DNA from: Psammoneis japonica
Taxonomy: Eukaryota
Length of the DNA: 64,000 nucleotides
Assembly (NCBI GenBank): GCA_008632985.1
Contig: QPGO01000071.1
Span: 62,001-126,000 of the forward strand
Direction: 5' to 3'
Part shown: piece by piece, positions 30,352-53,689 of the stretch
How positions within the stretch are numbered: position 1 is the stretch's first letter
Layout: each line of letters opens with the position of its first letter
Notes under the pieces: generated by a model
What the model saw: only the letters and a program-made list of their open reading frames with translations
Told to the model about the DNA's origin: nothing
The model's database searches: none
Program-made: the position numbers and the translations under genes

Positions 30352-32093
30352 TTAATAACATCTGTTGGAATCAGATTGACTCGTGCTGGAATCGTCTGAC
30401 GGTGTTGGCGTATCGATAGCCAACTCGTCTTGGTTATTGTTTCCACTACGCTTTTGTTTCCAATCGTGCCATTTTCCCTTTAACCAATAGACAAAGAGTT
30501 CGGTGCCATTTCCATAAATCATGTAGGCTACCCATCCACTGAGAGCACCGTAATGAGTCTTGCCCAAGGCTACAATCACCATGGCTGTAATGACGGCAAT
30601 TACTGCATTGGTACGGAGCGACATTGGTGGTGGCGGCCGTGGTCCGACGTGTTGTTGTTGTTGTTGTTGTTGCGCCTCGCTGTTGTTTTTGTTTGAATCG
30701 GATACCAACAGTATAAAGCCTGTAGTTGTCAATCCCTGTCCTGCAATCGACAGCATGATACCAAGCACGGCATCGGGAATGGCATCAAACAATGTCAAGA
30801 CGGACGCTCCAAAAAAGATGGCCAAGAGGATTTTCCACGATCCCAAAAACACAACAGACGCTCCGTGTCGTGCTCCTAGTCGGTGTTGTCCAGCCAAACC
30901 ACCCGCCCCGTGACAATTGGGCATGGAACCAAAGGGACAAAGCAACAGATTCATGAGTCCGACACTAATGCTGACATCGCGTCGTGACACAACCGCGTCG
31001 TTGCTATTGCTGCCAACATTGGGCCTTCGTTTCTCGGGATAGAGGGAATGCGCCAGACAGCAAACCGAAATGACGGAATTGAGTGTGGTGAGCGGCAACT
31101 GCGGAATGGCTCCCTCGAGTAAGCCCACTTTGAAATCGTACCCCGTCACATCCTCAAGGGCCCAGACGGCAATGGGCGCACCAAACAAGGTCAGTGGCAA
31201 GTCGTACTGGCCATTGGCATTGTCGGTAGTGGCCAATTCGACAGCGGCAAAGACGATTCCCACCAAGAGCAAAAACAAACCAACGGGATAAAACTGGCGT
31301 CTACCACGTCCACAACAACAGCAACACCATATCCAGTCCCAAAACCCTCTAGGACGATCCTCTTGTTGTTGTTGTTGCATTTCTTCCTCTTGTTGCTGCT
31401 GCTTGGAGGTTCTCGTAACCAATACAAGCATAGCACAGCAAGGATAATAGCGAGAACAATACAATCGGCTTGATCAGCCCATCCCAGCGCCGCCACCGTC
31501 ACAATACCCTTGGTAGCTAACCGCAGCCCAACACCCACTTGCAATCCACTAACGACAGGTGATGGTATGATTATGTTTACCAACTCAATCAATTGCGACA
31601 AACCCAACAATACCATGAGAATCCCCATCCACAAACCGGCCGTTGTGACTTGCTCACGCGTCAATTCTTCTGCCAGTGCCACGGCCGCAATGGACTTCAT
31701 GGGTTGTACCGGCATGGGTACATCCCACATGTAGCCCGTAATGACATTGGACAGTCCGGCAAAAAATAGAGCTGGTGTCAAGTAAATGCTACGTTCGCGG
31801 GCCAAGGCCACCACGAGCGGAATGAGCGTACCCAAATCACCGCAACTGCCGGAAATTTCCTTGAGTGTTAGCTGAGACCACAGTGTTTTGGAGCGACGAA
31901 TAAACCATTGAATGGGATGATAATCACAATTTCGATTGTTTTCTTGTGATAATTCTTGCTCTGTCGTGGCTGTATCGTCTTCCAGAGGACAACAATCAGC
32001 GAGAACATTATGATTAGTGGAAGCACAAACGGCGGCGCTGTTGTTGTCGTCGTCGTGTGCTTGCTCAGGATCGGTTTGTTTCAGCGACTCCAT
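30352..32093 (-). CDS. Molybdate transporter, MOT1 family (frameshift near 31390)
   Basis: SGSCGDLGTLIP, PMPVQPMKSIAAVA, PQLPLTTLNSVISV and MPNCHGAGGLAGQHRLGAR motifs. Confidence 0.92.
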
Positions 32094-32299
32094 AGCTCTA
32101 GAGAGTATCTTTCGAGTATAGATTTATGCTCACTTGTGTGTTCAACAATACTACAGTAACAACATGAACACGCCGTCGACAAACTTCCCACGCCAAGATG
32201 AATTAGACGCAATAGTCTAGTTTCGATTGCTGCGGGAAGTTTGTGGGTGGCGTGAGCTGTTTGGAGTGTGTGAATGCGGTACGATTTGGGCGTGCGCGC

Positions 32300-33400
32300 T
32301 TCTTCCAGACTTGCAAATTCAGCAGTCAGCCAGCCAGCCAGATCAGATCAGTCAGTTTTCAGCAGTTCATTAGCACTCTCCATCACGAACAATGAGTTCA
32401 ATGAAAACAACAGTTTTGGTGTGTTTCCGGCCCTCTCCAAAAGCTTTGCAGTGCCACGCCACCATGTGCAAAGCACGCTAAGGACCCGTCCCCCTGCGCT
32501 GTTTGGCGGTGCACCCCCCCAGTCACTGTGAGAATGATGGCACAACCGAAAAATGGCATCTTTCATCACAGTTTGAGAAAAATCATGTCACACACTGCAG
32601 ACTGTGTCCCAAACTTTTTTGTGGCAGTGTCGGTGCCAAGTGGAACCTTGCCGGCTCCTGGCATTGTGCAAGTTGTGGCAGAGGGTCAGGAAGAAGAGAA
32701 AGACACTGCAGCTCTGCTGCACTTGAAAAAGGCTGACGCTCACAACATGATGACCATGCATGCCTGTGGTGGACCCAAGAGACAAGATCCTGTTCAACGA
32801 CCAATGCCGTTGTGGCAGGAGCACTCTGTTGGTGCTTTCCGGGACATCGTGCATCGTGCCATCTCCCAATTGTTCATGGAAGAATGGAAAGAGATCAAAG
32901 GTAAATGTCAGATGCAAGAATTGCACAAACATTGGCAAGACTGTCAGGTGCAACAACAACAAGACTCTGCCGCTGATCTTTTGTCATTGTGGTTCGAGCC
33001 CATGCAATTTGACAGTGACCCCACCAACGCCATTCAGTTTGCTTCTGCGTGATTCAATCTGGAACCCATTCCCAAGCCTCACATGATGGCAATCCATGGC
33101 ATGCAGCATCTTTCCTTGCAAGAGTCAGTGGCCAAAGATGGAGCGTGCATCAGAGAGACTCAAGGGTTGCAGCTTGCTTTTTGACTGTCCACAAGGTTTA
33201 ACTTGTGACACATTGAGGATGGCCTGGACAAGTGGCAAACATTGCGTTTGCTTGGATTGGCTTTCCAACCAACAACAGACAGAAGGCACTCCTTCACAGT
33301 CTTTCCAATCATTTTGAAACCAAACACAATTCACCTTGGACGCCACACGTTAGTGTCGCATGTGGGAATCCCGAATGCGACTTGCATGTGCGCGGCATGG
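32300..33400. other. Hypermutated island 2
   Basis: TpA nearly absent from about 32500 to 33340; TpG/CpA excess; composition returns to normal by about 33420. Confidence 0.85.
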
Positions 33401-33525
33401 TTGATTATTTTTCTGGGAATCCGTCTCTACTTTCGAAACAACGACGCATCCAGGCCGTGTCTCTTAGGAGTACACAAGGAAAATTGGCAGATTGGAAAGA
33501 GGTGTACCGAGTAGAAGTATTGTGA
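32535..33525 (+). pseudogene. Decayed 2H-phosphoesterase (cyclic phosphodiesterase-like) gene
   Basis: LSLWFEP, an in-frame TGA, then KPHMMAIHG, which reverts to EPHVTVIYG when CG and TA are restored. Second motif PHVSVACGNPE; 3' end VSLRSTQG looks unmutated. Confidence 0.65.
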
Positions 33526-33665
33526 ACAGAAATAACCTGATTTTGTTGATTCTGTTATGTTGTGAGAAATACTCAGACTTTTGCCCTCTATAACGAACTA
33601 GTAGCAAAGTAGGGTTTCCTTTGAATCGAGTGGGAGCAATATATGTACAATCGTTGTTCTTTCGC

Positions 33666-34421
33666 TTACAAGAGCCTACTTTTTGGACCAGACCTGTTTT
33701 CAATCAAGCCGTAGTTTCGTTGCAAGAGCAAGTGTTGTAACTCTGTGCTGTGTTCCAGAGACACAACTAAAAAGGCCGAAATCCACAAAGGATCGATTGC
33801 TGTGCCTAGTTTGTTGTATAACGATAGGAATGTCTTTGCCTCTCTTTGTCCTTGTTCATCCCACCAAGATGAAAAGAGGACCTCTCGTCCCCGCTCAAGC
33901 GCCAACTCTAGTCCGTCATTGATTACAAGTGAATCTACTAGTTGACTGCTGGAGAAGTCACACGTTTCACACTCGTCAGCACCACAAGGATAGAACAAGT
34001 TCCGATTCCGTGGCCATGCGTATTCGAATCGATCGCCCAATGGCCATACCGAAACGGCCTCGCCCCATTGGGAAGCATCTTGAACAGAAAAAGTCGCAAT
34101 GTGTCCAGTAGAAGGACGAACCATGTAACCGTTTAGTTGTTTTTCCAGGCACTCAAAGTACTCTGTGGAGTGAGGATCGTCATAGGTGCCGGGTATTAGC
34201 AAATCGGGCCTTGGGTGACAAATCTGGAAGTCTTTGTTGTTTGCCCAATCATGTCCGCGATACAAACATTTACCCTTTGAAACAGCGTATCGAAATGTTT
34301 CTGGAGTACAGTTGCAAATCAGGTCCGCTACCTCGTCAAGCGAATGTTGCTGTCGCAGCGAAAGAATGGCGGACAACACAAACGAAGCTCCTGCTCGTCG
34401 TGACACGAGCATGGCAACCAT
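33666..34421 (-). CDS. Hypothetical protein
   Basis: 251-aa ORF with normal composition (LYRG, RPSTGHI, WG..VSVWPLG); family not recognised. Confidence 0.65.
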   Translation of the reverse strand: MVAMLVSRRAGASFVLSAILSLRQQHSLDEVADLICNCTPETFRYAVSKGKCLYRGHDWANNKDFQICHPRPDLLIPGTYDDPHSTEYFECLEKQLNGYMVRPSTGHIATFSVQDASQWGEAVSVWPLGDRFEYAWPRNRNLFYPCGADECETCDFSSSQLVDSLVINDGLELALERGREVLFSSWWDEQGQREAKTFLSLYNKLGTAIDPLWISAFLVVSLEHSTELQHLLLQRNYGLIENRSGPKSRLL

Positions 34422-36469
34422 GCCATGAAATCAGAACAATGTTTGTTTTAGAATTTATTGTCAAGCATGAGACACTTTCATATTTCAATTGCGAAGCAAC
34501 CAAGGCGGCGACGCGGCGGCGAACAATGAACAATCCTGATGCATGCTTTTGACCGGATGCCGGTTGTACCGTATGTCGCCTGCTGGTTGCTGGCATGGAG
34601 TGCAGGACAGACGGTGATGGGGTGAAGAAACAAGAAACTAATTGAACTAACAGGTTCCTTTGTGGTTGAGTTTCAGGGCACATCTATCAGACAAGCTGCT
34701 CTGCTAGAGACCTGGCAATGGCACAATGGCTCACACTTTGGAGGCCCCACTGGGAGGCAGAGTGAAGAGAGAGAGTGGCACCAAAAAAGTCTCAGCGGAT
34801 GTGCCATTCCCACTTGAGATGCTGCAAGCAGCGTGTGAGCATGGTGAGACTGAACTGGACAACTGTGCATTGGATCTGGCCAAATTGTGCCAGGAAGCAT
34901 GCACCATGAAAACACAAACCAAAATCAATCATGCTGATTTGGACAACATTGCTGCCGACCGTCCCTTGTCTGCCATTTGCACAGGAACAGAGAAACACAA
35001 CTGGACACAACCAAGAAAAAGGCCGTTGCACTTGATGGCAATGCTGAAAACTCTGCAGCAGTGTCTTGGGATGACACATTCTTGCAGAATTGGACAAAAC
35101 GCCTGGCTCTGCATGCTACAGAGATTGAAGGTGGCACAAAAACATTGAAGCTGTGATGCTCCAATGTGCAAAGAATGCTGCTCACCAAGACCAACAACAC
35201 CTGGGAACTGCCACAGCATCCCAAATCAAAGTGGATTGCCCCTGCAGCCTCTGACACCATGCATGCCATCAGCAAACATGCTGGCAGTGCACACAAGAAG
35301 TTCAAGAGCCATCTTGAAGGAGGGGTCAAGTTTCACAAGGAAGACTTTGACATCATCCTTGGTGCTCATTTAGACTCCACTGAGTCATGGAAGATGTGCC
35401 ATTCCCACTTAGATGCAGGAATCTTTGTCAAAAAGCAGGTGGCGGTGCTCAGCAGAAGAAAAATGTGATTTTCTAGAAGCTGCCTCAGAGAGGAGAAATG
35501 GGCCTTGCAGAGAGAGGGGTGCTGAAGAGAGGAAATGAGCTCCAGGGTGGAGTGGCGCCAGGGGGGCAGAACTTGTTGCTCAGAGGAGAAGCGCCAGGCA
35601 ACAGTCAGCAGACAAAGCAGGAGGGGAGCCACCAAAACAGCAAGCAGCACAAAGCACCCACCTTTTGCAGCTGAGGCAGCCAGTCAGCATGGACCCACAT
35701 TCTGTCCTGTGAATGTCTTGGAGCTTTCTTGCATGGTGCACTTTGGTTGATGGGGGGTGAGTTGGTGCCAGGGGCAGGCAAGCCATGAGCCGGAGGAGTG
35801 GGGAGCTTTGGAGAGCAGCTGCATTGTCATTGGCCATTTGCACTGCTCAGGAGGAGGGTGAGGCAGTTTTTGATGTCACAGGTTCTTGGAGTTGGATGCC
35901 CACAATGTTGCCAACTTTCCAAAGTTCTGCAGGGAAAGGAAAGAAGGAAAGAAGGACATTGTGGACAGCAAGCTGATGCCTGTTGGGTTCAAGATGTTGA
36001 CAATGGTGTTCTGGGCCTGCCTCTTTGGCAGGGGTGCTGGTGTGATGCAAACACCGCAAACATTAACAGCAGCTTCTTGGCATGGTTTTCATGTGGTGTG
36101 GCAATGTCTGACAAGGGCAAAAAAGGCATTGAGGTGGTCTGCAGATGACTGGGCAGCATGGAAGGGTGGGTCAGAAGCATCAATGTCAGCCACAATCCAG
36201 AGGGCATGGTCATGCAGGGGGAAGCAAATTGGTGCAATGTGGGAGGCCATGATGGGCAGGGATGGCACCACCCACCGGGTGTCTTTGGCATGGTCAGTGA
36301 AGCTTCTTGAGGGAGGAAGGTGTGCTGGCAGAGATGGGCTTGCATCTGCAAATGGGACAGGATGAAGTGGAGACATCCATTGTCCATTGTCACAATTTGT
36401 AAAGTGTGAGATGGGATGCTTGGGCCAGTCTTGCATGTGGAAGCATGCAGGCACTGGCCCAGAAGCAGA

Positions 36470-37014
36470 AGATGTGCAGTTTCTGCTGGAAGGGAGTTTG
36501 ACTTCACACTTGCAGTGTCTTGTCTTTTGGGGGAAGTGGAACAGTGCAGAGAGACAGGATTTGTTTTGACATTTTTGTGTCAGTCCACGTTGCCACATTT
36601 TTCACTCCTGCAGCAGGAAAAGCCAGAGCTGACCTTTTTTTTAATGGCAGAGAATGGTTGGATGTTTCAATGAAATCCCAGTCTGCTGTTTTGTCGCCCA
36701 CTTCTTTGTCTTTGCTGCAATTGGAACCAAGATGTTCTTCTTTGGGCAGATGCAGTTTTCTCAAGATAAAGCAATCCTCCTTCATCAACAATGTTGAGCT
36801 GCTCTAGGCACTTGATGCAGTGCTGTTCATGAGTGGGGACATCCGCCACCTTGGCAAGCATGGTTTTCTCAACAAAAACTTCAGACAATTGATCCGGAGA
36901 CAACTCACATTCAACGGCTCATTCCTCAATGCATTCATCACCAATGGCTCCCAAGTGCATGGTGATTTGTCTGCCAACAGCCAAGCAGGTTGCAGGAAGG
37001 TGAAAGAGAAAGAT
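36470..37014 (-). pseudogene. Hypermutated 3' fragment and 3' flank of the 43-46 kb membrane-protein gene family
   Basis: SPDQLSEVFVEKTMLAKVADVPTHEQHCIKCLEQLNIVDEGG aligns with SPDQLSEILVEKTMLAKAADIPIHEQYRIKYQEQLDIIDEGG; DNA aligns with about 44630-45143. Confidence 0.95.
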
Positions 37015-40000
37015 GGGCTTCCTGTGGGCCTCTGCCAAGGTGAAGCTGCACCCTGTCAACAAAAAAAGCAGCACCCTCACTTGGATTGGACAGCTCAGGT
37101 GACAATGCAGAGCACTCTTCATTGGATCCCAATGCATGAGATTTGTCAGCACCTGGAAGCATTTTGTGCACAGAGACATCTTTGTCTTTTTCTTTGGACA
37201 GAGATCTGTCTTGGTCACAGTCATTGTCATCTGATCCATGAGATGCATTGTCCTGCAAATCCATGTCAGGAAAATCACATGAGCCTCATGCCGCATTGCT
37301 GGGAGATTCAACCAAGATGACAGCAAGGGTGCACATGGGGGAGCCAGTGCCAGCAATGATGACAGGAGTGTCGCGGGAGGTGCCAACACCTGCGGTGTGC
37401 ACCTCACAGGATGATGATGACCAGTTCTCATGCTCCCTTTGGTGACTGAGAAGCGACACTGAGGCTTGGGACAGTTTGCCCAAATCAGACAAAGATGCAT
37501 CCACACAACCAATGGTGTTGGACCTGTGGCAACAATGGTGATGACAAATCTCATGTGTTGAGATCCAAATGGGGGGGNNNNNNNNNNNNNNNNNNNNNNN
37601 NNNNNNNNNNNNNNNNNNNNNNNNNNNNNNNNNNNNGTTGAGGGCAACTGTGCTGATTCATTTGAAATTGGTTTGCCGAGTGAGCATGGGTCGTGACTTT
37701 AAAAAATGTGGTTCACCATGGGACAAGCAGACAGAGCAAAGGCAACATCATGGTTGTTTGTCACCCCTGAAATGCACACATTCAGTGATGCACAAATGCA
37801 CTGCATTTGAAACTTGGGCGAGGTTGTTCGAATGGAACATGTTTCAAAATCAGAGGATGAAGAATGCAGACAAATCTTTTTTTTTTGCATTGGCTGGAAG
37901 AAGAAAAGGAAATAAAAGGCAACCTGATTTGTGATGGTCAACCTGGCAACACCACACACACAACCATCAGCAGAGCTTTGCAAAAGCATGCTGCACAACA
38001 AACAACAAAGAAAGCATGACAACTGTGGTGCAGAGGCAAATCAACACAGCTGAGAGAATGGCTGATGATGACAAGGTGGGTGGCAACATCATCAAGGTGA
38101 GAGACCATGTCAAAGAAAAGGTGTTTCTCAGCATCACATGTGTGTTTCATGCAAGGCAGCCAGAGGAAACAGGCATGTTGTGTGCAAAGACTTTGCCCAG
38201 AACTGTGAGCCAATGCTGGTGGATGGCACGCTTTTAGAGCTTCCAGAGGTGCAACAAATTTCATGCCTGCATTTCCTGTGGATGAAGATGAGACAAGCCA
38301 GGTTGCATCAGCCAGGAGCAGCTGGCAATGAAGTGATCAAATGCTCATCAGGCTCAGCAGGACAGGTTCTTTCATGGCAAGTGTGTCTGGTCAATGTTGA
38401 CAAATGAGGAGAAACACCTTGTTGTCATGTCATCCCCAGCTGTGCAGCACTTTGTGCTTGCTGCAAGAAGAACAGCTGCACATCTTGCTGTCACCAAAAC
38501 AATTCCAGGGTCATTTGTCATGCCCAACATTGCATGTGGTGCTCTGTGGCTGCCCTGTTGCAACCTGTTGCAAGACAAAATTGTTTGAAGAAGAGCCTCT
38601 CTGATGACATGAGGATGTGCACGTCATGTGCCAAAGCATTTGCACACATGCTTCTCAAGAACAACTTTGATGTGTGGTGTGCAGAGCACAAGAGCAACAA
38701 CACACCAGACAGCACTTTGAGGTCAGACTGTGACATGGAGGTCAAGAACAAAGGAAACCCAACTGGAAGGGCGGACTTGTGTGAAAGCATCCCACCATGA
38801 CCAGCCATTGCAGAGGAGCACAAGAGGATGCAAACAACAAATTGAGCATGTTCACCTTGTTGAAGAGAGACCCAGAAGAGCAGATGGAACAAGGAATGGT
38901 GCAGGAGCCAGTGGACTAGCTCAAGAGTGATGGGTGAAGAGGATGATGCTGCAATCTTGGGAGGGAAAGTCTGGCACTGAGCAAGAAGCTCCACACAGGT
39001 GTTGTTGGATGGTTTCCGTCAATTTGATGCAGACAAATCTGGCAGCTTGACCAAGAGGGAGTTTCTGAAACTGGTTTCTGGAATTGATTAAAAACTTCAA
39101 CAGTCACACCAACCAACCCCCTGGCTCCCACCTCATTGGACAGTGCTCAAGCGCAGCATTTGGTGCAGTGGATGGACACCCTCTAGAACCCAAAGTGGGT
39201 GCCAGCATGCATCGCCATGCCAGAAAAGATTTGTCCTCTGCTGCTGTGAAAGGAAACTGGTGGCAGCGCGCTTGCATTTGGCGTGCAGTGCACCCTCCAA
39301 TGTGCACCTGTGAATGCATGCAGGTGTTGTCATGGGTGAGAAAAAAGCATCTGAATTAATGCCTTCAGTGAAAAGAACATTGTGCTGCTCACCGAATTGT
39401 TCGGAAAAGACAAGTTCATTGCATCGTGACGTGACAAAGAGGAAAACACATGGACCAGCCATTGTGCAAGGAGTGCCACTGCTGCAATGCTTGTCATGAT
39501 CCTCTCCACTTGCCACAAACAGAAAAAGATGCGCAACACGATTGCGCACTGCCTTGCTGCAAACAACGAACAAGTGCTGTGGCAGGATGGAGGCTGCGAA
39601 CGCTGTGAGACTGACGATCCCCGTCAAGCGCAAGCCCTCGGCACTTTCATGAGTGTCTCTCTGATGATCCATGACTTTTTTGGATGAAACATTTGCCATG
39701 GGATCATTGCTTTGTCCTTTTCGTAATCTGCAAGCCTCCATTTCCGCTTCCTTGAAGTTGATGTCATCACTGTTGAGAGAATTGCACTTTTGCTTCAACA
39801 CAAAGTCAGTGTGCTCTCCTTGATGAGTGCAAAACAGGCATTTTGTGCACAAAGCATTGTTCCATTGCACTTGCAGCATTCAAAACCTGGCATTTCCGTT
39901 GCCGCAGGCTCATCATGTCGAGGATGCTGGACATCAGACGACCAACGCAATGATCTCAAAGAGTGACTTTTTTTTCCTTCCACGGCCAATCATTTCAAAC

Positions 40001-40377
40001 CAACGAGATTTGAATGAACACTTTGTAGAGTGTTAGACAAGACTGCCAAGTGTGAAGCTTCAGATCATTGCAGTCACAGAGTGGCAGGCCTCCAAGTTTG
40101 ATGCGCCATTGCGGACAGCCGACAGGCAGCGTGTTTTTGTTTTTTGTGTGTTTTGGCAGGTTTTTGGAATTTTTTTGAAGATTGACAAATCACCGGACGA
40201 CGGCCAGCACATGGTGGCGAATTTCAGACCGTCAGCGTTCCCGCAGTTCACAGATTCACTGAGCGATTGCAGATGAATGAACAGCTCGACCTTGGAAGCT
40301 GTGAAGCTGCGTTGTCATCCCAACCGCTTTGACAGCTCACCCCGACCTTGTGCCACAACAAGCTCTGTTTCTTTACA

Positions 40378-40704
40378 ATGAACGACGATGCGAACGATCG
40401 CTTTCGGTTCGGCTCTCGCGAAGGACTCGATCGGCCTGACCTTCGAAACAAGATCAACGACATCCTTTTGCATGACTGGGATCCCATCGGCGCAATGGGC
40501 TTTTTCGATGACGTTGACTGTGGTGCCGTTCGAGATGAGCACCGGGATCATGTCCCCGACGTCTTGCGCTTGTTGCAAAGCAGAGGGAACGAGCAGCAGA
40601 TGTGTGAGCTGCTGCACCAAATTGGAAAGGACTGGTGGAGAGAGGATGCACAACCGGAAGACCACACGGTGGTGGCACAAAAGCTTGTTGCATTGATGGA
40701 GTGA
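40378..40704 (+). pseudogene. Small WDPIG...DEY-type protein gene with Tyr codons apparently converted to His/Cys
   Basis: ILLHDWDPIG...RDEHRDHVPDVLRLL resembles a WDPIGV...DEYDxY motif I recall from small bacterial-type hypothetical proteins; no Tyr and no TpA in the ORF. Confidence 0.55.
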
Positions 40705-43013
40705 GGTCAAGAACGTCATGTCCCGGAGAAGTGCGCCAGCAAAAACATGGGTTTGTCACACAGTGGCATGGTGTTTCGGCACGAGCATGTGATTTCTTTT
40801 CGCACACTTTGTTTTCGTTGCTTTGGTTGCACACAGCGATTCGTGAAACAAAGTCGTAAACCATGCCGTTCCGTGCAGCTTTGTCTCAGTGGTTTTTCTT
40901 GTGTTGGATTACAGTCACAGCAGCATGCCCGAAACAACCCGGCAATGTGTGCTTGACAACTCCAAAAATGCCCTTGCTGGAACAAACCACCACGACGCTG
41001 CAAAAACCTCGTCCTTCGCAGCACCAGCAGCGTCTGTTTCGTCGATTGTTGCCTCGATGGGGTTTGGTGGCAACCAGCAGTCGTGCAAAGACACAATTGC
41101 ATGTGTCGTGAAAAATGCAATGTCCCGCATCATGCTGCGTTTGCTTTTCTCCTCTCCATTTTCTGGGAACACCACAGCAACATTCGCAAGGGACTGGAAG
41201 CCAAGAGAAAAAGTGCAATCATGGCCACCAATGGCAGCCACAATGGCCATCCTATCCAGAGAACTGGAAAAACTGGAAGCCTCAGCAAAGCAAGCAGCAA
41301 CAATCATTGCTCAGAGGGCAAGCATGAGCCAGTCACCCTGAAAACTCGTTGACATGTCGTGCACAGTTTCTCAAGAACTGGGCACCGCATTCATGGATGA
41401 TGGTGCTGCTGTGAAATGTCTGGGGCTGGCTTCCACTGTTTCCAACAAGGCCTTGACTTTGGGCTTCAAATTCTGACAGAAAATTGAAAAACAGATGAAG
41501 CCAGCTGCCAGCACATGTGCACTGGCCAGGTTCATCAGATTGCCCTGACATTGTGGGCAACCTGTGGCCGCTCCAGACTGCCAAGGCAAATGTGCGAGCG
41601 TTGCAGCAAGAGACCTTGCAAGATTTCCTTTTGGTGATGTTGAATTGCCCGCTTGACAGTTGTTGGCAACAGGGGCACAGTTGAAAGTGGATCACCAGTC
41701 TTTTCCTTTTTCTTTGTCAAACTTTTGGCTGGCACCTTGGCAAGCAGTGAAAAAGTGAAGGCAGCTTGTCAAGCCCCTGGGTTGTCACAGATGTTGCTTT
41801 CACTGTCATGATGGACAAACACAGAAACAAGGTTTTGGTGCTTTGCAGTGGTGTTGGCTTGCCAGATGATCTGTGGAGTGACGTTGAGGTTGTCATGATG
41901 TGGCGAAAATTGATCTTGTCCATCCTTGGTTGCCAGATGTTCCACTGCTGGCCATGATGAACAAAGCCAGAAACAATGATTTCATTCCTTGCAGCAGTGC
42001 TGAGCTTGCCATGTTTCTACAGAGGGTGGCTCAATTTGTCATGATGATGACAGCTCTTGTTGATCTGTGCACATGTTTGCTTTGTTGTGAGCGCAGCAAT
42101 GAAGATTCCATGTGGCTCTTTTTGAAAGAGCCATGCCATGGAGGAGAAGCAAACAATCTGAGCAAGCCTGGTGCCTGTCTCTGCATCATCTGTCTGATGC
42201 ATTGTGTGTGCACAGGTGCACATTGTTGGATGTGTGAGGTTGCCACAGAGGGGCCTCGCTGTCTGCCAAAGAGCACAGCATCACTGGCTCTGGTGTTGGC
42301 ACCTCCTTTAGATCTTCTCACAACTTTGTTTCATGCAAGCTCTTGAGGGCAGCAGCATGAGTGTGTTGAAGGCAGGAGGGAAACTGCAATGAGGATGGCA
42401 ACCATGGCACAGCAATTTTAAAAGTGGCAGCCAGCCAGAGTTGAGGGACCCCAAGGTGTCACAGTGGTGGACCCAGGGTGTGGGAGAGGTCAGGGCAGCA
42501 GCACCAGCAATGAAGGATCCACATCACATGCTGGCCACAAAGCCATGGTCATCAGCCATGGTTGTCATGAGGGTTTGAATGGGGAGGCACAATGAAAGAT
42601 CAAACATCTTGAGAACATCCAATGAATGAACCAGCTGTGCGCCCCTGATGCCCAGAACAAAGGACAGTCCGACCCAAATCTGGCTGGACAAGAGAGGCTT
42701 AGATCAGTCACTTTGAGCATTCCATGACTGACTCCTTCTGTTGTCACACTTGTTGGACGTGCAGCTCTGCCTCTGCCACAACAATCAAATCGAGTCTGCA
42801 ATGCAAAGAAGAAATCTTTCTTCGCAACAGATCTTGAGGAACTGCAGTTTCTACTGCAAGAAAGTTGCACTGCGCGCTCACGGTTTTTTTTGGGGGGGGG
42901 GGGGGGGGGAGGCCCAGTAGCAGCTCTACTCTGGAAGAGCAGTCCACGTCGCTGCTTACAGGAAAAAGTGCAACTCGATAAGTCTGCATTGATAGACATT
43001 TCTAGAAAATCCT

Positions 43014-43979
43014 CTAGTCTGACTTTTTATCACCCACTTGTTCGTCTTCGCCGTAACCAGAACCAAGATATTCTTCTTCGGGTAGACGCAGTTCCTCCAG
43101 ACGAAGCGATCCTCCTTCTTCAATGATGTCGAGCTGCTCTTGGTACTTGATACGATACTGTTCATGGATAGGGATATCCGCCGACTTTGCAAGCATGGTT
43201 TTCTCGACGAGGATTTCCGACAATTGATCCGGAGACAACTCGTATTCAAGGGTTCGTTCCTCAATGCGCTCGTCACCAATGGCTCCCGTGTACATGATAA
43301 TTCTGCCAACGGCCGAGTAGGTCGAAGTAATGTGAAAGAAAAAGATTGTAAAAGCCACAGTAATTGGTAACGCCACTTGCCAGGCAGCCAAGACGTAGAA
43401 GAAGAGGTTGATCCAAATGTAGTAAATGTAAACGCTTAACATTCCAAGACGAACGGGAAGGGCCACGGCGTAGATAAAAATAGAACTTCTCAAGAGGAGA
43501 TGAGCGTTCTTTTCACTAATTTTGACCATGAGAGCCCATGCCGTCAGAATAGCCAACAAAGAAAGGAGAGAGACAATTGTTCCAAGGCAGAGAAACAAAC
43601 CTGCCCAAAATGCAACGGTATCAATGTCTCTTGTTTCCAAGGCCGTGCGAGCCTTTTCGGTTGGACGAGACGGACTAAACAAAACGGAGAGCTGGGAACC
43701 GAGCAAAAGCGTCATCATTGTGGAAAGCGATGCAAAGCGACTAGTAAAGAGCGAAATAATCTCTTTTCCATTTGATTTTCCATAAAGGATGTGCAACCTC
43801 CATTTGTCGGTCAATTCCACGCCGTAGAACGTATCCGCAACACGTTCGAGGGTCTGAAATAGATAGCCACTCCAGGCATGTCGTGCCCCATGAGGCGGTT
43901 CCTCGGTATCAGGGTCCAACATGCTGGCCCGATGCGAACGCGACGACACATGGTTCGCAGATGTCATTGCGCCGTACAT
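43014..43979 (-). CDS. Multi-pass membrane protein of unknown family, copy 1
   Basis: About 321 aa from MYGAM; 4-5 hydrophobic helices and an acidic tail; paralog adjacent. Confidence 0.8.
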   Translation of the reverse strand: MYGAMTSANHVSSRSHRASMLDPDTEEPPHGARHAWSGYLFQTLERVADTFYGVELTDKWRLHILYGKSNGKEIISLFTSRFASLSTMMTLLLGSQLSVLFSPSRPTEKARTALETRDIDTVAFWAGLFLCLGTIVSLLSLLAILTAWALMVKISEKNAHLLLRSSIFIYAVALPVRLGMLSVYIYYIWINLFFYVLAAWQVALPITVAFTIFFFHITSTYSAVGRIIMYTGAIGDERIEERTLEYELSPDQLSEILVEKTMLAKSADIPIHEQYRIKYQEQLDIIEEGGSLRLEELRLPEEEYLGSGYGEDEQVGDKKSD

Positions 43980-44810
43980 TGTCTGGATGCAAGAACGACG
44001 AGAGCAAAAGATATTCACAATAGGACACCATCAAAACGATGCGCAGATTCATGGGAAAAGTCAAAACAGTGTGCTTCATGATATGGGTGAATCCCGCTCC
44101 AGGGTGAGTCCGTTCATGTGCAAGACTGAAAAATCTTGAATGACAAGAATGAACTGAAATTTACTTGAAGTTCGCGAGTTTTGGTGGCGACTTTCAGTCG
44201 TGCAACGACAATGGTGTAAATACCGGTATCTGCTCTTTCGAAAACCAATATTCAAATTTTATCTCGGGAGTGTTTTTTACGCACTTTGTATTCTGGCACT
44301 GCAGCAGTGAATAACGCCTGGGGCCGTCGAAATCGGAGGAGTGGCGGCAGGGCCGCAGTTGCAGGCCCCATGCACGATTTTATAGGAGGCCCTGTCACAG
44401 CAGCAATTGACACATTGGACCAGGTCCCGGTGTTGCGGGCTCGGCTACCGTACACACGGATCACTTTGAGCCCTCTATGACTATATGGCTTGTTCTGTTG
44501 TTATTAATACGTCATTGTTGGAGGCGTGGCGCTCTCTGCCTCTACAACAGCCATCAAATTGAGTCTGCACAAAATGCACAAGAAGAAATCTTTCTTTGGT
44601 GGATATACTGAGGAACTCCTGCAAGAAAGTTGGACTACGCACCCGCGGTGTCTTTTTTATGGGGGGTTGTGGAAGATCAAAGAGAGACAGGATTTGTTTT
44701 GGCATTTTTGTCCGTCCACGTCGCTGCATTTTTTACTCCTATGTAGGAAAAACTAGAGCTGACCATTTAAAAATTTATAGCAGACAACGGTTAGATATTT
44801 CTAAAAAATC

Positions 44811-45777
44811 CTAGTCTGACTTTTTATCACCCACTTCTTCGTCTTCGCCGTAATCGGAACCAAGATATTCTTCTTCGGGTAGACGCAGTTCCTCGAGACG
44901 AAGCGATCCTCCTTCATCAATAATATCGAGCTGCTCTTGGTACTTGATACGGTACTGTTCATGAATGGGGATATCCGCCGCCTTGGCAAGCATGGTTTTC
45001 TCGACAAGAATTTCAGACAATTGGTCCGGAGACAGCTCGTATTCCACGGTTCGTTCCTCAATGCGCTCGTCACCCATGGCTCCCGAGTGCATGATAATTC
45101 TGCCCACGGCCGAGTAGGTTGTAGAAATGTGAAAGAAAAAGATTGTAAAAATCACCGTTATGGGTAACGCCACTTGCCATGCAGCCAAAACGTAGAAGAA
45201 GAGGTTGATCCAAATGTAGTAAAGGTAGACGCTTAAAATCGCAAGTCGAACGGGAAGGGCGGCGGCGTAGATAAGAACAGAACTTCTCAAGAGGAGATGA
45301 GAATTCTTTTCGCTAATGACAATCATGAGAGACCATGCCGTCAAAATAGCCAACAACGTAAGGACAGAGATGACTGTTCCGAGGCAGAGAAACAAACCTG
45401 CCCAGAACGCAACGGTATCAATGTCTCTTGTTTCCAAGGCCGTGCGTGCTTTTTCGGTTGGACGAGACGGACTAAACAAAACAGACAGTTGGGAACCGAG
45501 CAACAGAGTCGTCATGGTGGAAAGCGATGCAAAGCGTTGAGTAAAGAGTGCAGATAAGCTCTTTTCCATTGGATTTTCCATAAACAATGTGTAATCTCCA
45601 TTTATCGGTCAATTCCACGCCCCAGATCGTATCGCCAACACGTTCGAGGGTCTGAAACAGATAGCCACTCCAGGCATGTCGTGCTCCATGAGGCGGTTCC
45701 TCTGTATCAGGTTCCAACATACTGCCCCGATGTGAACGAGACGACACATTTTTCGAAGACGCCATTGCGCCGTACAT
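44811..45777 (-). CDS. Multi-pass membrane protein, copy 2 (1-bp frameshift near 45550)
   Basis: ORFs 45472-45852 and 44811-45587 together are collinear with copy 1. Confidence 0.8.
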
Positions 45778-46152
45778 TGTCTGGATACAAGAACGAAGAG
45801 AGCAGAAGATGTTTACAGTACATAGAGTTGCACCATCAAAAAACGAAAACATGTCTCATCTCTCATCTTCAATCTTCAGGATCGCGGTGCGCATTTTTTT
45901 GGAGTTTAACCGACACCTCCGGGTTTGCTTATGTCATCATTACGTCACGATGTCATGTCGTCTCTAAGTATCTTTTTTGCGCAAAATCTGCGCATCACTC
46001 ATCCAACTGCTCATGTCACGCACATCACAACGCGACGATGCTTCCTGCCTGATTGCATCCATCCACAATCCACAACTTCGCGGTAGTCAAAAACGGCCTT
46101 GTGTGTATCCTTTGCGCTCTGGATAGTGTGTCTCATATATCTCACTAAAACC

Positions 46153-47743: not shown

Positions 47744-49978
47744 TTAGTAGTGGTGATAAGGAACGGCGGGCCCACTACTTGTATAAAGGGAGTATGCGGG
47801 GAGTTTTAATGTGAAGCTTCCAACATAAAAAGCTGTGTCGTCAAAGATATCGAACGGTGCTTCTGCATCGTCCCGTAGCACTGGCGAGAGCTGGACTTGT
47901 CCAAAAGCTCCGCTGAACTCGTTTGTGCCACCCGTAATGCCGAGGTATCCGCCAATTTCATCATAGATTTCACCAGCAGCATTGAAGCTATTTCCCGTTT
48001 CATCATTGTACGTGAATTCACACCGTCCACCACCTGGAAATTCGTTGGAGCCATCGTTGTATTGCAATCGGAGGCAGTCACCAGTTATCGAACCAATGCT
48101 GTTGTTGTTGTATCAAAAAGGGACGAGTTGGCAAAGATGAAGAGCACGCCAACTTCTGTTGTAGATTCGATACCATTGGCTAAGTTTAGAGCGAAGTAGG
48201 GTGGCTAGCAAGCAAATAAGACGGATTGTGAGACCTTCATACTGTCATTTACTGTTGTTTGGAAAATATTACCAGGTACAAAGAAAGATAACTCACCTGA
48301 ATAAACTCCATCTCAATCTTGCGAACACTGACTCCGCCATACTCCTCTTCATACTCATACTCATAGTGGTAGTCATAATCTTTGTGGTAGTCGTAGCCGT
48401 ATCGTAGCCGTCGTCCTTGTACTCATGTCCAGAACCGGAACCACCCTTCTTGCCACCTGAACCACCTTTGCCACCCTTCTTGCCCGATGAACCCTTGCCT
48501 TCATATCCATCATCATATCCGTAGTCATGGTAATCGTACCCTTTACCCTTGGCATACTCGTACCCCTTCCCTTTGGCATATTCGTATCCTTTACCCTTGG
48601 CATACTCGTATCCTTTTCCTCCGTAACCTTTGCCTTCATAGCCTTTGCCCTTGGCGTACTCGTATCCTCCGTAACCTTTGCCCTTGGCGGACACGTATCC
48701 TTTCCCTTCATATCCTTTACCCTCATATCCTTTACCCACAGAGTACTCGTATCCTTTTCCTTCATATCCTTTACCCTTTGCGTACTCGTAACCCTTGCCT
48801 CCATATCCTGTACCCTTGGCGTACTCGTATCCTTTTCCTTCGTATCCCTTGGCGGGCGCGTATCCTTTTCCTTCGTAACCTTTTGCTTCATATCCTTTGC
48901 CCTTGGCGTACTCGTAACCCTTGCCTTCATATCCTGCACCCTTGGCGTACTCGTATCCTTTTCCTTCGTATCCCTTGGCGGACACGTATCCTTTTCCTTC
49001 GTAACCTTTTGCTTCATATCCTTTACCCTTGGCGTACTCGTATCCTTTTCCTTCGTATCCCTTGGCGGACACGTATCCTTTTCCTTCGTATCCTTTTGCT
49101 TCATATCCTTTGCCCTTGGCGTACTCGTAGCCCTTGCCTTCGTAGCCCTTGCCCTCGTATCCTTTTCCTTCGTAACCTTTTGCTTCATATCCTTTGCCCT
49201 TGGCGTACTCGTAGCCCTTGCCTTCGTATCCTTTGCCCTTGGCATACTCGTATCCTTTTCCTTCGTAACCTTTTGCTTCATAGCCTTTGCCCTTGGCGTA
49301 CTCGTAGCCCTTGCCTTCGTATCCTTTGCCCTCATAGCCCTTGCCTTTAGCAAGCTCGTAACCCTTGCCTTCGTATCCCTTTCCTTTGGCGTACTCGTAG
49401 CCCTTGCCTTCGTATCCTTTGCCCTTGGCATACTCGTATCCTGTGCTTTCATAGCCTTTGCCTTTAGCAAGCTCGTAACCCTTGCCTTCATAACCTTTGG
49501 CATACTCGTAACCCTTGCCTTCATAACCTTTGGCATACTCGTAACCCTTGCCTTCATAGCCCTTTCCTTCATATCCTTTACCCTTCGCGTATTCATACCC
49601 ATTGCCCTTGGCGTACTCGTAGCCCTTGCCTTTTCCAACATCACCGTATCCGTCGTAACCTTTGCCTTCATAGCCCTTTCCTTTGGCATACTCGTAGTAC
49701 TTTCCGTCATACCCTTTACCCTTGGCGTATTCATACGCCTTGCCCTTAGCATACTCGTAGCCCTTGCCTTTTCCTTCGTAATAACCTTCATCATAACCAC
49801 CGTAATCGTTATAGTGCTTAGCGTCTGAGCTGGACCCTTTCTTTCCAAGGGAACGGCGGCCTTGTTCGGGTTCTTCAATTGTGGCTGAATCACTTACTTT
49901 CGCATCATCCAAAGCCACGCAGGCTGTGATGCTTGCTACAATAATAGCAGCTCCAGCGAATCTTGACGCAATCTTCAT
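47744..49978 (-). CDS. Secreted Tyr/Lys/Gly-repeat (GKGYE) protein with C-terminal dirigent/AOC-like domain (intron about 48205-48296, frameshifts)
   Basis: Signal peptide, RRSL site, dozens of KGY units, then GYLGITGGTNEFSGAFGQV in ORF 47744-48067. Confidence 0.75.
48490..49790. repeat. Coding minisatellite of 15-21 bp units (GKGYE / YAKGKGYE)
   Basis: Repeated cccttggcgtactcgta and ccttgccttc units. Confidence 0.95.
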
Positions 49979-50619
49979 TGGCGTATTCTAAAGGTAAAAC
50001 AAGCAAGAGAAAAATGCTTAAGATTGAAATTCCTCTAAAACATCAACAATTGTACCGCTTGAAGCCAAAGCACCGAAAATACAACAGATCAACTACTACG
50101 AGCGCCGTTGATGATAAAACCAAAGAGCTACCCACTACTTTCGAGCTGAATCGTCTAAAGGCTTCCTAACTTACATTGCTTCTTGTTTGAGAGTGAGGGT
50201 GTGTCGGCGGGACGAAAGGATGAATGGAGTGTCTTTTGTGTGTCTCGATTCGAGGACTGCAAGAATTGTGAGCGTTGAAATCAGTCGAGCGCACCAAGAC
50301 GTTGGGCAGAAGCGTTGGGCGCGGCCGTTGAGGCCGTTGAGCTTATGCTTCTATACATGAATGATACCCGTCGCATGGCCAAAAATCTTTATGATAGTAA
50401 TCATTATTGCATAGAACATGAAACATAATGTCGGAAGATTTCTTTACTTTGAACGGATACATGCATTGATTGTATGACGTGCAGACGCGCACCTCCGCAC
50501 AGAAATAAAAGCAAACGCCACGCGGGCGGGCGCGCGACACGCAACACAACATGTGTGTAGAGCAAGTGTAGAGTTCGTGTGCTCCCAACGTAGACGACTC
50601 TAGAGTTTTGTCACCCTGC

Positions 50620-51950
50620 GGTGCGTCTCCCAGCTAGCTAGAGATTGTGTTCAATGAGAGAAGAGATTGTTTTAGGTCAAATCGTAGTGACAGGCTTTGT
50701 CAGAGATGGCATGGATCATGCCACTGCCCACGAGACAGTGGTGGTTGTTCTGCGAAGTCATCCTCAAGCTTGTCAAAAATGTTCTCAGCTTTTTTTTGCA
50801 AAAGCTGCCATTCACAAAAGACTCAGACAGGCAAAACCCATCACGAGTGCCTTTGTCACATGTGAACTTGTTGGGGCAGAGCTGGGGTGGGTGGTGGGCT
50901 GGGACCCTTCGCCTCTCTGGCCAAATGTGTCTTTGTGACAGCACCCCCCCAACTTTTGGAGTGAAAAGTGGCACACAGTGTCATCAGAAGATTGCTCCAC
51001 ATGTGTGTGCATTTGGCATGCAAATGGCATGCTCTGCAGATGTGCACCTCTGCACAGAAGCACTGGGCACATGGTGCACAACATGCGCCGCTGCGCGCCA
51101 CATGCTGGAGTTTGCGTGCTCTCTCTCACACTCTCCAGGCTGGCTGGAGTTTGGCTGCCCTGCATCACATCTCCTGGCTGGCTGGACATTGTGTTCAACA
51201 ACAAAAGAGATTGTTTTGGCAGGTTAAAATCACAGTGACTGGCTTTGTCCAAGATGGCCAGGGTGTCATTGCGAGCGGTTCTGTGCATGAAAAATCGAGG
51301 AAGCACGAGCCAAAAAAGGGCAACGGCGCGCAACTCTTGTTGTGCAGCATTGTCAACATGTTGACAGTCACCAATTTTTGAGCTTGTCAAGACATTTTCA
51401 GTGTGTTTTTGCAAAGACTCAAAAGACTCTGACAGGTGAATCCTATCACAAGGGTCCACAGCTTGGGGCAGTGCTGGTGCTGGTGCTGGTGATGGGCCAG
51501 GAGGCACAAGTGGATGGACTGGAGCATTTTTCTCAATGTTGGAACTGTCATGGCAGCTTGTGCAGACTTTTTTGGAAAAAAATGATAAAGCCATCCTTGC
51601 CATTTGTGCAATGACGGAAGTGCACATGTTGGCACCAGACTTTGACAGAACATTTTGTTTGTGCATGTGTGGTTGGAAGGAAAAGCTGGTTGAAATTCTT
51701 TGCAGTCATGGCATTGATACCGGGAACCAGGGTGAGTGAGTCAGAAGGGGGAAGGGGCTGATGCAATCGCCAAATGGCATTAAGTCAGACACAACACTGA
51801 GCAGCGGCAACAGGTGATTGACCAGGGCCCTGGCCTTGTCCCTGTTTCAAGTAGTCGTTCTCCACAGGCCTGCAATGGTTGTCACCATCTCACCATGACA
51901 TGACTTTCAAGGATGCTGTCATTTAACAGTTTGGGTAAAATGAGGTGTGC
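50620..51950. other. Hypermutated island 4 with a diverged internal direct repeat
   Basis: TpA nearly absent from 50700 to 51700; attgtgttcaa..aagagattgtttt at about 50644 and 51188; agcttgtcaa...aaaagactc.gacagg at about 50767 and 51381. Confidence 0.88.
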
Positions 51951-52074: not shown

Positions 52075-53689
52075 CTAATCCTTCAAGGCGGGAATGCAAT
52101 TGTTGGGGTGTTGCTGTCCATGGAGACCCTTCAATTTGTAATCACGAATGTTTTCAATTGTAGTGTTCACGATGGCGTCAACTGCCTCCTGAGTAAAAAA
52201 TGCCTGATGCGCCGTCAGAACTACCTTGTTGTCGCCAAGCAACGCCACAAGATCGGGATCCTTGACGCTTCGTGCCGACCAGTCCTGAAAGAAGTATTCG
52301 GCTTCATTTTCGTAAACGTCCATGCCTACGCCGCCAATGATTCCCGTCCGAAGTCCCTTCAACAGCGCCTTGGTATCAACAAGTCCACCACGGCTCGTGT
52401 TGATGAGAATGACGCCCTTCTTTAGTTTCGTGAGAGCCTCGTCGTTGATGGTGTGGCGAGTCGGGGGAATAAGAGGCATCATGAGAAAGAGAACATCGGA
52501 CTGAGCAAAAATCTCGTCTTTGGAGACGTACGTGGCGCCCTTTTGTTTGAGTTCTTCATTCTCAAACACATCATAACACAAGAGTTTGGCTCCAAAGCCC
52601 AGTACAATGTTGCACAGCAAGGCGCCGATCTTTCCTGTTCCCATCACTCCGACTGTCTTGCCGTGAATATCCATGCCCATGAGGCCCGAGTCAAGGGTAA
52701 AGTTGGCCATCTTGACCCTATTGTTGGCCTTGGTAATCTTGCGGTTCACCGCCATGAGAAGCGAAATGCCCATTTCCGCCACGGCATAGGGCGAATAGGC
52801 CGGAACACGGGCAATCGTCATGCCGTAGGCACGAGCAGCCTTGGTATCGACACGATCAAAGCCGGCACACCGCATGGCGACAAGCTTGACGCCAAGGTGC
52901 GAAAGACGCTGCAGCACCTCGGCGTTGGCTGAATCGTTGACGAAAAGACAAACCGCATCGTAGCCGGCAGCAAAGGTGGCGGACTGTTCCGATAGACGGT
53001 CGGTGGTAAAGTCCATAACGATTTGAAACTCTCCATCGTTTTCTTCGTTGAAGGCTTTGATGGCTGGTTTGAAGCCTTCTGTTACCCAACTGGTAGCATC
53101 AAAACACATGACGCGACAAACAGAAGCATCATCGCTGTCGCTCCCGCTGGTATGTTGTCCCTTGACTTGAGAAAGGAGACCGCGGAGAGACTTGGAGCCC
53201 GTCCTCAACTCGGTTGCAAGAGTTTGCATAAATTGTAAGCAAACGCTGGTTCGGTCGAAATGAGACTTCGAAGGTCCTCTCCCTCCAAGAGCCAACCTTG
53301 GTGTCACCGACGGCAGAGACTGTGGCAAACGCCGTAGATCCTTCAATAATGGTGTGCAGGAGTCCCGTGATGCGTCCTCTGCCCTGAATCGTATCCACAA
53401 CCACAGACAAGTCGCGAATCTCCTCCGACGTGGCCATGCTTTTGCCTGCAAAGCTTTTTCGCCGATCCTGGAATGTCTCTCCCTCGGCACTCATCTTGGT
53501 ACGCTGTAGCTTACCAGATTCCAAAAGAATGAGCTGCAACACTTCTTCGCCTTCTCTTTGCAACATATGGCCGTCGGGTACCTCGGCCGAGACCATTTTG
53601 GAAGCAAGAGCCTCCATCATACTATCCGGCGCATCGTGGAACCAGCGGGAGGCCTTGAGCAACTTGATGGCTTCGCTATTCGTGCTCAT
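52075..53689 (-). CDS. D-lactate (D-2-hydroxyacid) dehydrogenase with N-terminal cyclic-nucleotide-binding-like domain (frameshifted)
   Basis: RCAGFDRVD, VPAYSPYAVAE, GVMGTGKIG, INTSRGGLVD, DVYENE and TAHQAF; N-terminal WF...LQREGE..LILLESGKL...FATVSA. Confidence 0.88.

Follow-up and report, generated by a model that had tools for sequence, protein, structure and literature searches.

A short stretch of the Psammoneis japonica genome contains a dead gene lying in a free-standing island from which TpA has almost vanished. The segment 32981-33522 is the relic of a member of a diatom protein family with a predicted 2H phosphoesterase fold, closest to that of the Arabidopsis cyclic phosphodiesterase (CPDase). 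The damage forms a plateau bounded by two edges and does not fade from a source on the 5' side. We favour, at slightly better than even probability, a reading in which silencing fell on a gene-sized domain holding a dispensable old paralog, and in which this paralog was afterwards eroded by decay of CpG and by an A>G mutator specific to TpA. Coordinates refer to the window, the whole 64,000-nucleotide stretch that was analysed (assembly GCA_008632985.1, contig QPGO01000071.1, positions 62,001 to 126,000). The genome is 91.4 Mb in size, and 255.5 kb of the contig, labelled C72 here, was included in the analysis.

Homology of the window to the family is confined to 32981-33522, where it runs through three frames with E-values down to 3e-34 (1.7-kb target). 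A search of the same genome identifies two paralogs, L003 (PHATAIYG ... PHNSIAY) and L004 (PHVTVHYG ... PHLSLAY), which answers the question, raised when the sequence alone was read, whether an intact paralog exists. Both motifs are intact in both paralogs and their TA observed/expected ratios are normal (0.58 and 0.41). In L003 the frame shifts at 1850-1860, just before the second motif, which is probably an assembly indel. With L003 as the query, 84 relatives were found among 159 candidates, and the named ones are from diatoms (Thalassiosira, Attheya). The alignment includes 85 of the 92 database homologs, the seven of fewer than 200 residues being left out. The nearest homolog of the window copy is 44% identical to it. 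Protein searches with the window sequence itself gave no close relative (0 of 344 and 0 of 18 candidates), no Pfam family and no usable Atlas match, and no ortholog of the window paralog was found in the protein and homolog searches.

Two HxT/S motifs define the 2H phosphoesterases. In 67 aligned proteins of the diatom family H109, T111 and H198 are invariant and S200 is present in at least 90%. The Pfam family PF13563 scores above its cut-off in one of the 14 pieces and proteins scanned (P0078, 30 bits against 27), is below threshold in seven and is absent from six, including both window pieces. Sequence searches of the PDB with the family gave nothing significant; only the fold search matched. 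The fold was assigned from an intact homolog, P0006, the relic being aligned to the family and not itself folded. The predicted model of P0006 (pLDDT 84.5, built on 67 aligned sequences) has 29 PDB matches at E<=0.001; among those listed are CPDase, Usb1, LigT, AKAP18 and similar proteins, and the best structural match is Arabidopsis Appr>p CPDase (PDB 1jh6/1fsi, E 4e-7, target TM 0.77). The diatom family thus resembles plant-type CPDase in its fold match and its two HxT/S motifs. It differs from the Arabidopsis enzyme in being only 12-15% identical and in lying below the Pfam cut-off in 13 of the 14 pieces and proteins scanned, and the window copy differs from a working CPDase in that the Thr of the first motif is gone and the frame is broken. 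The alignment to the diatom family, the two genomic paralogs and the 2H result of the family fold search bear out the earlier proposal that this is a host-type 2H gene and not a transposon gene. The enzyme family itself is ordinary.

The window copy is divergent. A quick tree was built from 45 rows, the three genome copies and 42 of the 92 database homologs; in it the masked window copy has a branch of 3.0, compared with a median of 0.38, and no supported place. Between the window and L003 the first, second and third codon positions match at 85, 118 and 52 of 176, and 46 of 83 conserved columns are kept as against 21 of 93 variable columns. The codon-position pattern points to an old paralog that was long under selection, not to a recent duplicate.

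The eight codons at 33077-33100 (cct cac atg atg gca atc cat ggc, PHMMAIHG) are as the sequence-only reading gave them. In the 85 homologs the columns of this first motif hold H (84), T, A or S (44, 23 and 10), T (84), A (82, with V in one), I (78) and Y (84). The Thr of 84 of 85 homologs has become Met at 33086, a CG>TG-type change, and the equally conserved Tyr has become His at 33095, a TA>CA-type change. The proposed ancestral motif PHVTVIYG is over-corrected, since the Ala at 33089 is native; the reading supported by the family is PH(T/A)TAIYG. That homologs might natively show the observed residues had been named as grounds for abandoning the idea, and this is the case for the Ala but not for the Thr and Tyr columns. 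The premature TGA is real and its derivation from CGA is plausible, but the family column holds Arg in only 16 of 85 homologs (Lys in 31, Phe in 12). The suggestion that HVSVACG (33346-33366) was once HVSVAYG agrees with the family, in which the Cys column is Tyr in 84 of 85. Two frame changes and the start of homology at 32981 had been overlooked. An 80-nt intron at 33137-33216, which would join the frames, was rejected because its 26 codons align to the family. The lost first-motif Thr, the stop at 33050 and the two frame changes together make this a dead gene, a pseudogene. The lost Thr and, plausibly, the stop are CpG-type changes; the frameshifts are not.

Table 1. Features in and around the TpA-poor island (window coordinates).
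Feature	Position	Strand	Description
MOT1-type molybdate transporter (left neighbour)	30352..32123	-	divergent; normal TA/CG
Single-copy fold-back	32166..32257		40-nt arms, -43.5 kcal/mol, z -7.1; keeps TA and CG
TpA-poor island	32281..33350		two-state segmentation; 4 TA and 28 CG in 1070 bp
Open frame, 149 codons	32534..32980	+	in register with the 2H domain; no Tyr
Relic of diatom CPDase-like 2H phosphoesterase domain (predicted fold)	32981..33525	+	frames 32981-33136, 33138-33215, 33217-33525
Premature TGA	33050..33052	+
First 2H motif	33080..33097	+	H-M-M-A-I-H; family H-(T/A)-T-A-I-Y
First frame change	33134..33138	+	one extra base near 33137; placed by eye; no X1 gap
Second frame change	33213..33217	+	two family columns missing, near 33216; no X1 gap
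Mixed edge zone	33341..33404		7 CG and 1 TA kept; homolog-supported conversions at 33361 and 33397
Second 2H motif	33346..33363	+	H-V-S intact; next Tyr column (84/85) is Cys at 33361, TA>TG-type
Unmutated 3' end of the gene	33405..33525	+	TA 7, CG 6; conserved Tyr kept at 33406
Open frame, 254 codons (right neighbour)	33666..34430	-	convergent; no Pfam match; normal TA/CG
Tandem-repeat gene, 564-codon frame	48293-49987	-	Tyr/Gly/Lys/Glu-rich; hydrophobic N-terminus; no Pfam match; TA-rich

One contig of X1, a public run, reaches from 30500 to 34311 and shows only one gap, at 31404; nine of its 11 differing letters were listed, and none of those nine falls within 31552-33689. It shares the premature stop and both frame changes with the window. 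The lesions are therefore not peculiar to assembly GCA_008632985.1, with the proviso that X1 may be the source sample and consists of contigs, which drop rare variants, so that an intact second allele may have gone unseen. The depth of the X1 contig over the locus equals that of the flanks (contig depth is not copy number). The apparent frameshift at 31404 in the molybdate-transporter frame is an assembly indel, both X1 and X2 contigs inserting a G. In run X2, whose type is guessed to be DNA, contigs cover 30500-32232 and 33549-34509 and none covers the island; this resembles the neighbours' transcripts and is not used as evidence.

The depletion of TpA is close to complete. Between 32481 and 33340 there are 2 TA where 34.2 are expected (Poisson P 9e-13) and 18 CG where 47.4 are expected (P 9e-7), and the minimum among 38,086 overlapping 860-bp background windows is 14 TA. 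TpA is entirely absent from 32481-32860, and the 288 codons within the island include no Tyr. In the coding DNA of 63 family loci (of 66, three having fewer than 350 aligned bases) the TA observed/expected ratio is 0.34-1.01, with a median of 0.60, compared with 0.07 in 32981-33400; the CA+TG ratio is 1.78 in the relic and at most 1.39 among the same 63 loci. Across the island region the ratios are 0.03-0.07 for TA and about 1.8 for CA+TG, a bounded TpA depletion with CpA and TpG enrichment. The last 121 bp of the gene (33405-33525) are normal, with expected counts of 4.8 TA and 6.7 CG, as had been noticed for the last 120 bp or so.

The share of CA+TG among YR steps is 0.54-0.57 up to 32300 (background 0.61), forms a plateau of 0.75-0.96 over 32300-33300, is 0.72 in 33300-33400 and is 0.52-0.55 past 33400. 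The edges of the island are at about 32281 on the 5' side and 33340-33400 on the 3' side, where CpG reappears from about 33340 and TpA from about 33405. For the 3' edge, ramps of 50-200 bp fit no better than a step, or slightly worse, the difference being less than 1 log unit for TA and 0.8-2.2 for CG on few sites. Loss of CpG is deeper in the 3' part (6 against 26.5 expected in the 480 bp of 32861-33340) than in the 5' part (12 against 21 expected in the 380 bp of 32481-32860; halves compared, Fisher P 0.058). The mutator had been said to fade over about 100 bp. A mixed zone of about 60 bp does exist inside the coding sequence, but it follows a plateau of about 1 kb. Spreading from the 5' side, which had been read from the same pattern, is not supported: the island has its own 5' edge, the molybdate-transporter gene upstream is unmutated and CpG loss is deepest at the 3' end.

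The mutator accounts for part of the decay. The invariant Thr and Tyr columns are altered as conversion of CG and TA to CA and TG predicts, which upholds the signature first proposed. Among 83 columns conserved in at least 80% of the family, the window keeps 50 and changes 33, but only six of the changes are of mutator type, 27 are not, and neither frameshift is. The intact L004 breaks 28 of the same 83 columns (family median 4), which indicates that the changed columns of the window are not all decay. As a test of direction the reversals are weak: single mutator-type reversals restore a family residue in 10 of 122 cases, other transitions in 8 of 159 (P 0.33) and transversions in 25 of 711 (P 0.026), with a nearest homolog only 44% identical. 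The direction of mutation would therefore rest mainly on composition and a few invariant columns.

The 5' part of the island is less clear. Its 149 codons have no homolog in protein, Pfam or Atlas searches, and the 5' frames are shared by none of the 85 aligned family proteins and none of the 66 family loci. A top HMMER match to the N-terminal part, P0087, was dropped as a tandem repeat of a weak 38-residue match. The open frame was rejected as proof of coding, such a frame being expected by chance at about 4.2-6.5% of positions in island DNA and its purine periodicity not being unusual. The frame may be non-coding, and the 5' 700 bp of the island could be foreign DNA. No second copy, terminal repeats or transposon domain were found there in the genome, Pfam, fold-back/repeat and motif searches, and an N-terminal extension of the gene is mildly favoured over foreign DNA.

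The island stands between genes of normal composition. Its 5' edge is 158 bp from the molybdate-transporter frame, and the right neighbour separates it from an 8.2-kb TpA-poor block (34706-42917). Across 33526-34560 there are 42 TA where 41 are expected and 52 CG where 57 are expected, so the island is free-standing, with about 1.35 kb of normal DNA between it and the block. Relatives of the right neighbour were found in none of 48 metagenome stretches, and none of the 66 family loci matches the neighbours of the window copy. Each paralog has TA-poor blocks within a few hundred bases and yet is clean, which indicates that nearness to an island is not enough. The TA-rich 1.7-kb tandem-repeat gene, whose product may be a cell-wall protein, is untouched, which indicates that internal repetition is not enough either. 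A tandem pair of closely similar membrane-protein frames (43014-44030 and 44811-45855, minus strand) has normal TA and CG although the two are duplicates beside the large block.

Whole-genome DNA searches for a repeat partner returned only the locus itself or noise at the level of controls, and two degenerate motifs blind to the CA/TG/TA/CG state found no partner in the genome; these searches are not exhaustive, and absence of a match does not show rarity. In a collapsed-alphabet search of the 255.5 kb the best non-self matches did not surpass those of three control queries. Some other islands of the contig do have partners in the same alphabet, for example 3.6 kb at 77%.

A fold-back lies just outside the 5' edge of the island, between it and the start of the molybdate transporter (Table 1). 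It is the second strongest of 7245 windows, and Rfam gives sub-threshold matches only, among them a miRNA-like one. Hairpins were rejected as a general feature of island edges: of 32 edges, 1 has a hairpin at z<=-5 and 3 have one at z<=-3, compared with 0.3% and 3.9% of random places. These counts are a weak, after-the-fact hint. The strongest fold in the 255.5 kb is a near-perfect hairpin upstream of the window (C72 ~33,490-33,550, contig coordinates), which lies within a short local duplication about 950 bp apart.

The window contains six stretches that are nearly TpA-free (2-5 per kb, compared with 40) and also poor in CpG. In the 255.5 kb of the contig that were analysed there are 16 TpA-poor islands, covering 41% of the bases, and the one studied here is the smallest. 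Surviving TA lies in a YTAR context in 4 of 6 cases in the studied island, in 214 of 481 in other islands and in 873 of 5671 in the background; this preference, common to the studied and the other islands, indicates that the same process made the large blocks. At 30 other island edges, pooled, TA is step-like (4.0-4.8 per 100 bp outside and 0.2-0.6 inside), a step that is partly built in because the edges were defined on TA, and CG forms a ramp from 6.6 to 2.5. Within the large block, X1 and the window have CA/TG swaps at 34947-34948 and 35602-35603 and differ as TG/CG, CG/TG and CA/CG at 35363, 36055 and 36062. The same YR sites have been resolved differently between two haplotypes or strains, which indicates that the process was active after their split. 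A small TA-poor island at 50686-51923 includes short local duplications, and its end lies about 150 bp away from the intact gene of a D-isomer 2-hydroxyacid dehydrogenase (52075-53490). The island C72:161374-168137 is TA-poor yet CG-rich (72 CG per kb) and has about 5 kb in common, at 77%, with a more CG-eroded island of C72 (10740-30488); this pair is suited to dating the TpA and CpG processes.

According to the reading that we favour, an old third paralog of the 2H cyclic-phosphodiesterase family became dispensable, two intact paralogs being present, and a gene-sized domain between two intact genes would have been silenced. Within this domain CpG would have been lost by C>T change, as expected from methylated cytosine, and TpA by a TpA-specific A>G mutator; both processes end in CA and TG. 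This domain would begin in the promoter region and keep a plateau until some 120-180 bp short of the stop codon; the active neighbours probably set its limits. The mutating enzyme may be an adenine deaminase, as the authors of a study on Bigelowiella natans hypothesise, and the order of events is likewise conjectural. A version of the spreading from the 5' side that the sequence-only reading proposed has a foreign or mobile insert at 32281-32980 as its starting point; from there the process would have extended 3' into the 2H gene, weakening as it went. We consider this improbable, if still worth weighing. The 5' codons match nothing and are absent from the family proteins and loci, stop-free runs of their length occur at 6.5% of island positions, TpA is missing from 32481-32860, the 3' edge has its 60-bp mixed zone and gradient leakage is documented for fungal repeat-induced point mutation (RIP; PMC2973834). 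Against an insert, the searches found no second copy, terminal repeats or transposon domain, the 5' frame runs without a stop in register with the 2H domain, and CpG loss is weaker in the 5' half within a profile that is flat for about 1 kb.

A partial duplication would leave two sharp edges such as these, one of which falls within the coding sequence, and some other islands of the contig have partners. A RIP-like process would have struck both copies of a former duplication of the 1.07-kb segment, whose ends the edges would mark, before the partner was lost or was collapsed in the assembly. This nevertheless seems quite unlikely: no partner was found in the 255.5 kb or in the genome searches, there is one X1 contig at flank depth (which is not copy number), the tandem-repeat gene is untouched, and the target of nucleocytoplasmic large DNA virus (NCLDV) origin in B. 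natans is single-copy (10.64898/2026.01.13.699255). The island and the 8.2-kb block that lies 1.35 kb to its right could also belong to one silent domain, the island being an outlier of the block and the gene between them having been protected by selection or transcription. The half of the island closer to the block has lost the most CpG, and 41% of the 255.5 kb is TA-poor, but 33405-34560 is normal in TA and CG, and since this includes a non-coding gap and the 3' end of a dead gene, selection on one frame would not have kept it so. We regard this explanation as very unlikely. Native composition of a divergent gene, or an assembly error, is scarcely credible. There is at least one indel error nearby, at 31404, and the 27 of 33 changed conserved columns that are not mutator-type come near the 28 of the intact L004. 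This reading is largely refuted by the X1 contig, with its same stop and frames, by the depletion, with no Tyr in 288 codons, and by the family loci, the TA ratio of 0.07 being far under their minimum of 0.34.

TpA-only hypermutation, characterised by a mutation rate raised about 1000-fold, has been measured in B. natans (Mettrop et al., bioRxiv 10.64898/2026.01.13.699255, 2026 preprint). There, as it would in the present case, TpA becomes TpG or CpA, locally and within bounds, and the process is able to act on single-copy silent DNA. The measured targets there are integrated giant-virus and virophage DNA of 25-186 kb, compared with a native 1-kb diatom gene here, and the 2H domain is not of the foreign or viral kind, belonging to a diatom family with two genomic paralogs. 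In B. natans TpA is lost only in part (Rho 0.45), with no CpG loss described, whereas here TpA loss is near saturation and CpG is lost as well. The deaminase proposed there, as a hypothesis, is of ADAT type. Among coding sequences depleted in TpA and enriched in CpA+TpG, the preprint also names 24 Pfam families that probably come from the host, and this table of host-type domains may bear on the novelty of the present case.

Fungal RIP (PMC2973834, PMC4943192) is likewise a hypermutation specific to a dinucleotide; it can introduce stops and ruin host genes that are present in a single copy. Its direction is from CpA to TpA (PMC2973834), opposite to the loss of TpA and gain of CpA seen here. 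Leakage of RIP needs an adjacent repeat and shows a documented gradient (PMC2973834), whereas here no adjacent repeat was found and there is a plateau; leakage is nevertheless the closest precedent for hits on single-copy host genes. In the diatom Phaeodactylum tricornutum some protein-coding genes carry small-RNA-associated methylation (PMC4247016), a possible route by which a native gene could be marked like a transposon; no hypermutation is described in the accessible part of that paper. In the open literature searched we found no report of TpA hypermutation in diatoms, which does not establish its absence from print.

The present case adds a free-standing single-gene island with intact paralogs as controls. 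It suggests that the TA-erasing process can pick a single native gene without an adjoining transposon. A further and doubtful idea is that of a gene-level kill switch: a guided adenine mutator, probably linked to small RNA or methylation, aimed at one native single-copy gene without a repeat or foreign DNA. It would cover the promoter to near the 3' end and make the loss irreversible, and the fold-back at the 5' edge could be a trigger or a boundary. A 1-kb locus with two intact paralogs lends itself to comparing methylation, small RNAs and strains. For TpA hypermutation the question is whether targets are chosen by foreign origin, repetition, adjacency to repeats or silence. A native, old and apparently single-copy island between untouched genes argues against the first three and for a silent state or a guide.
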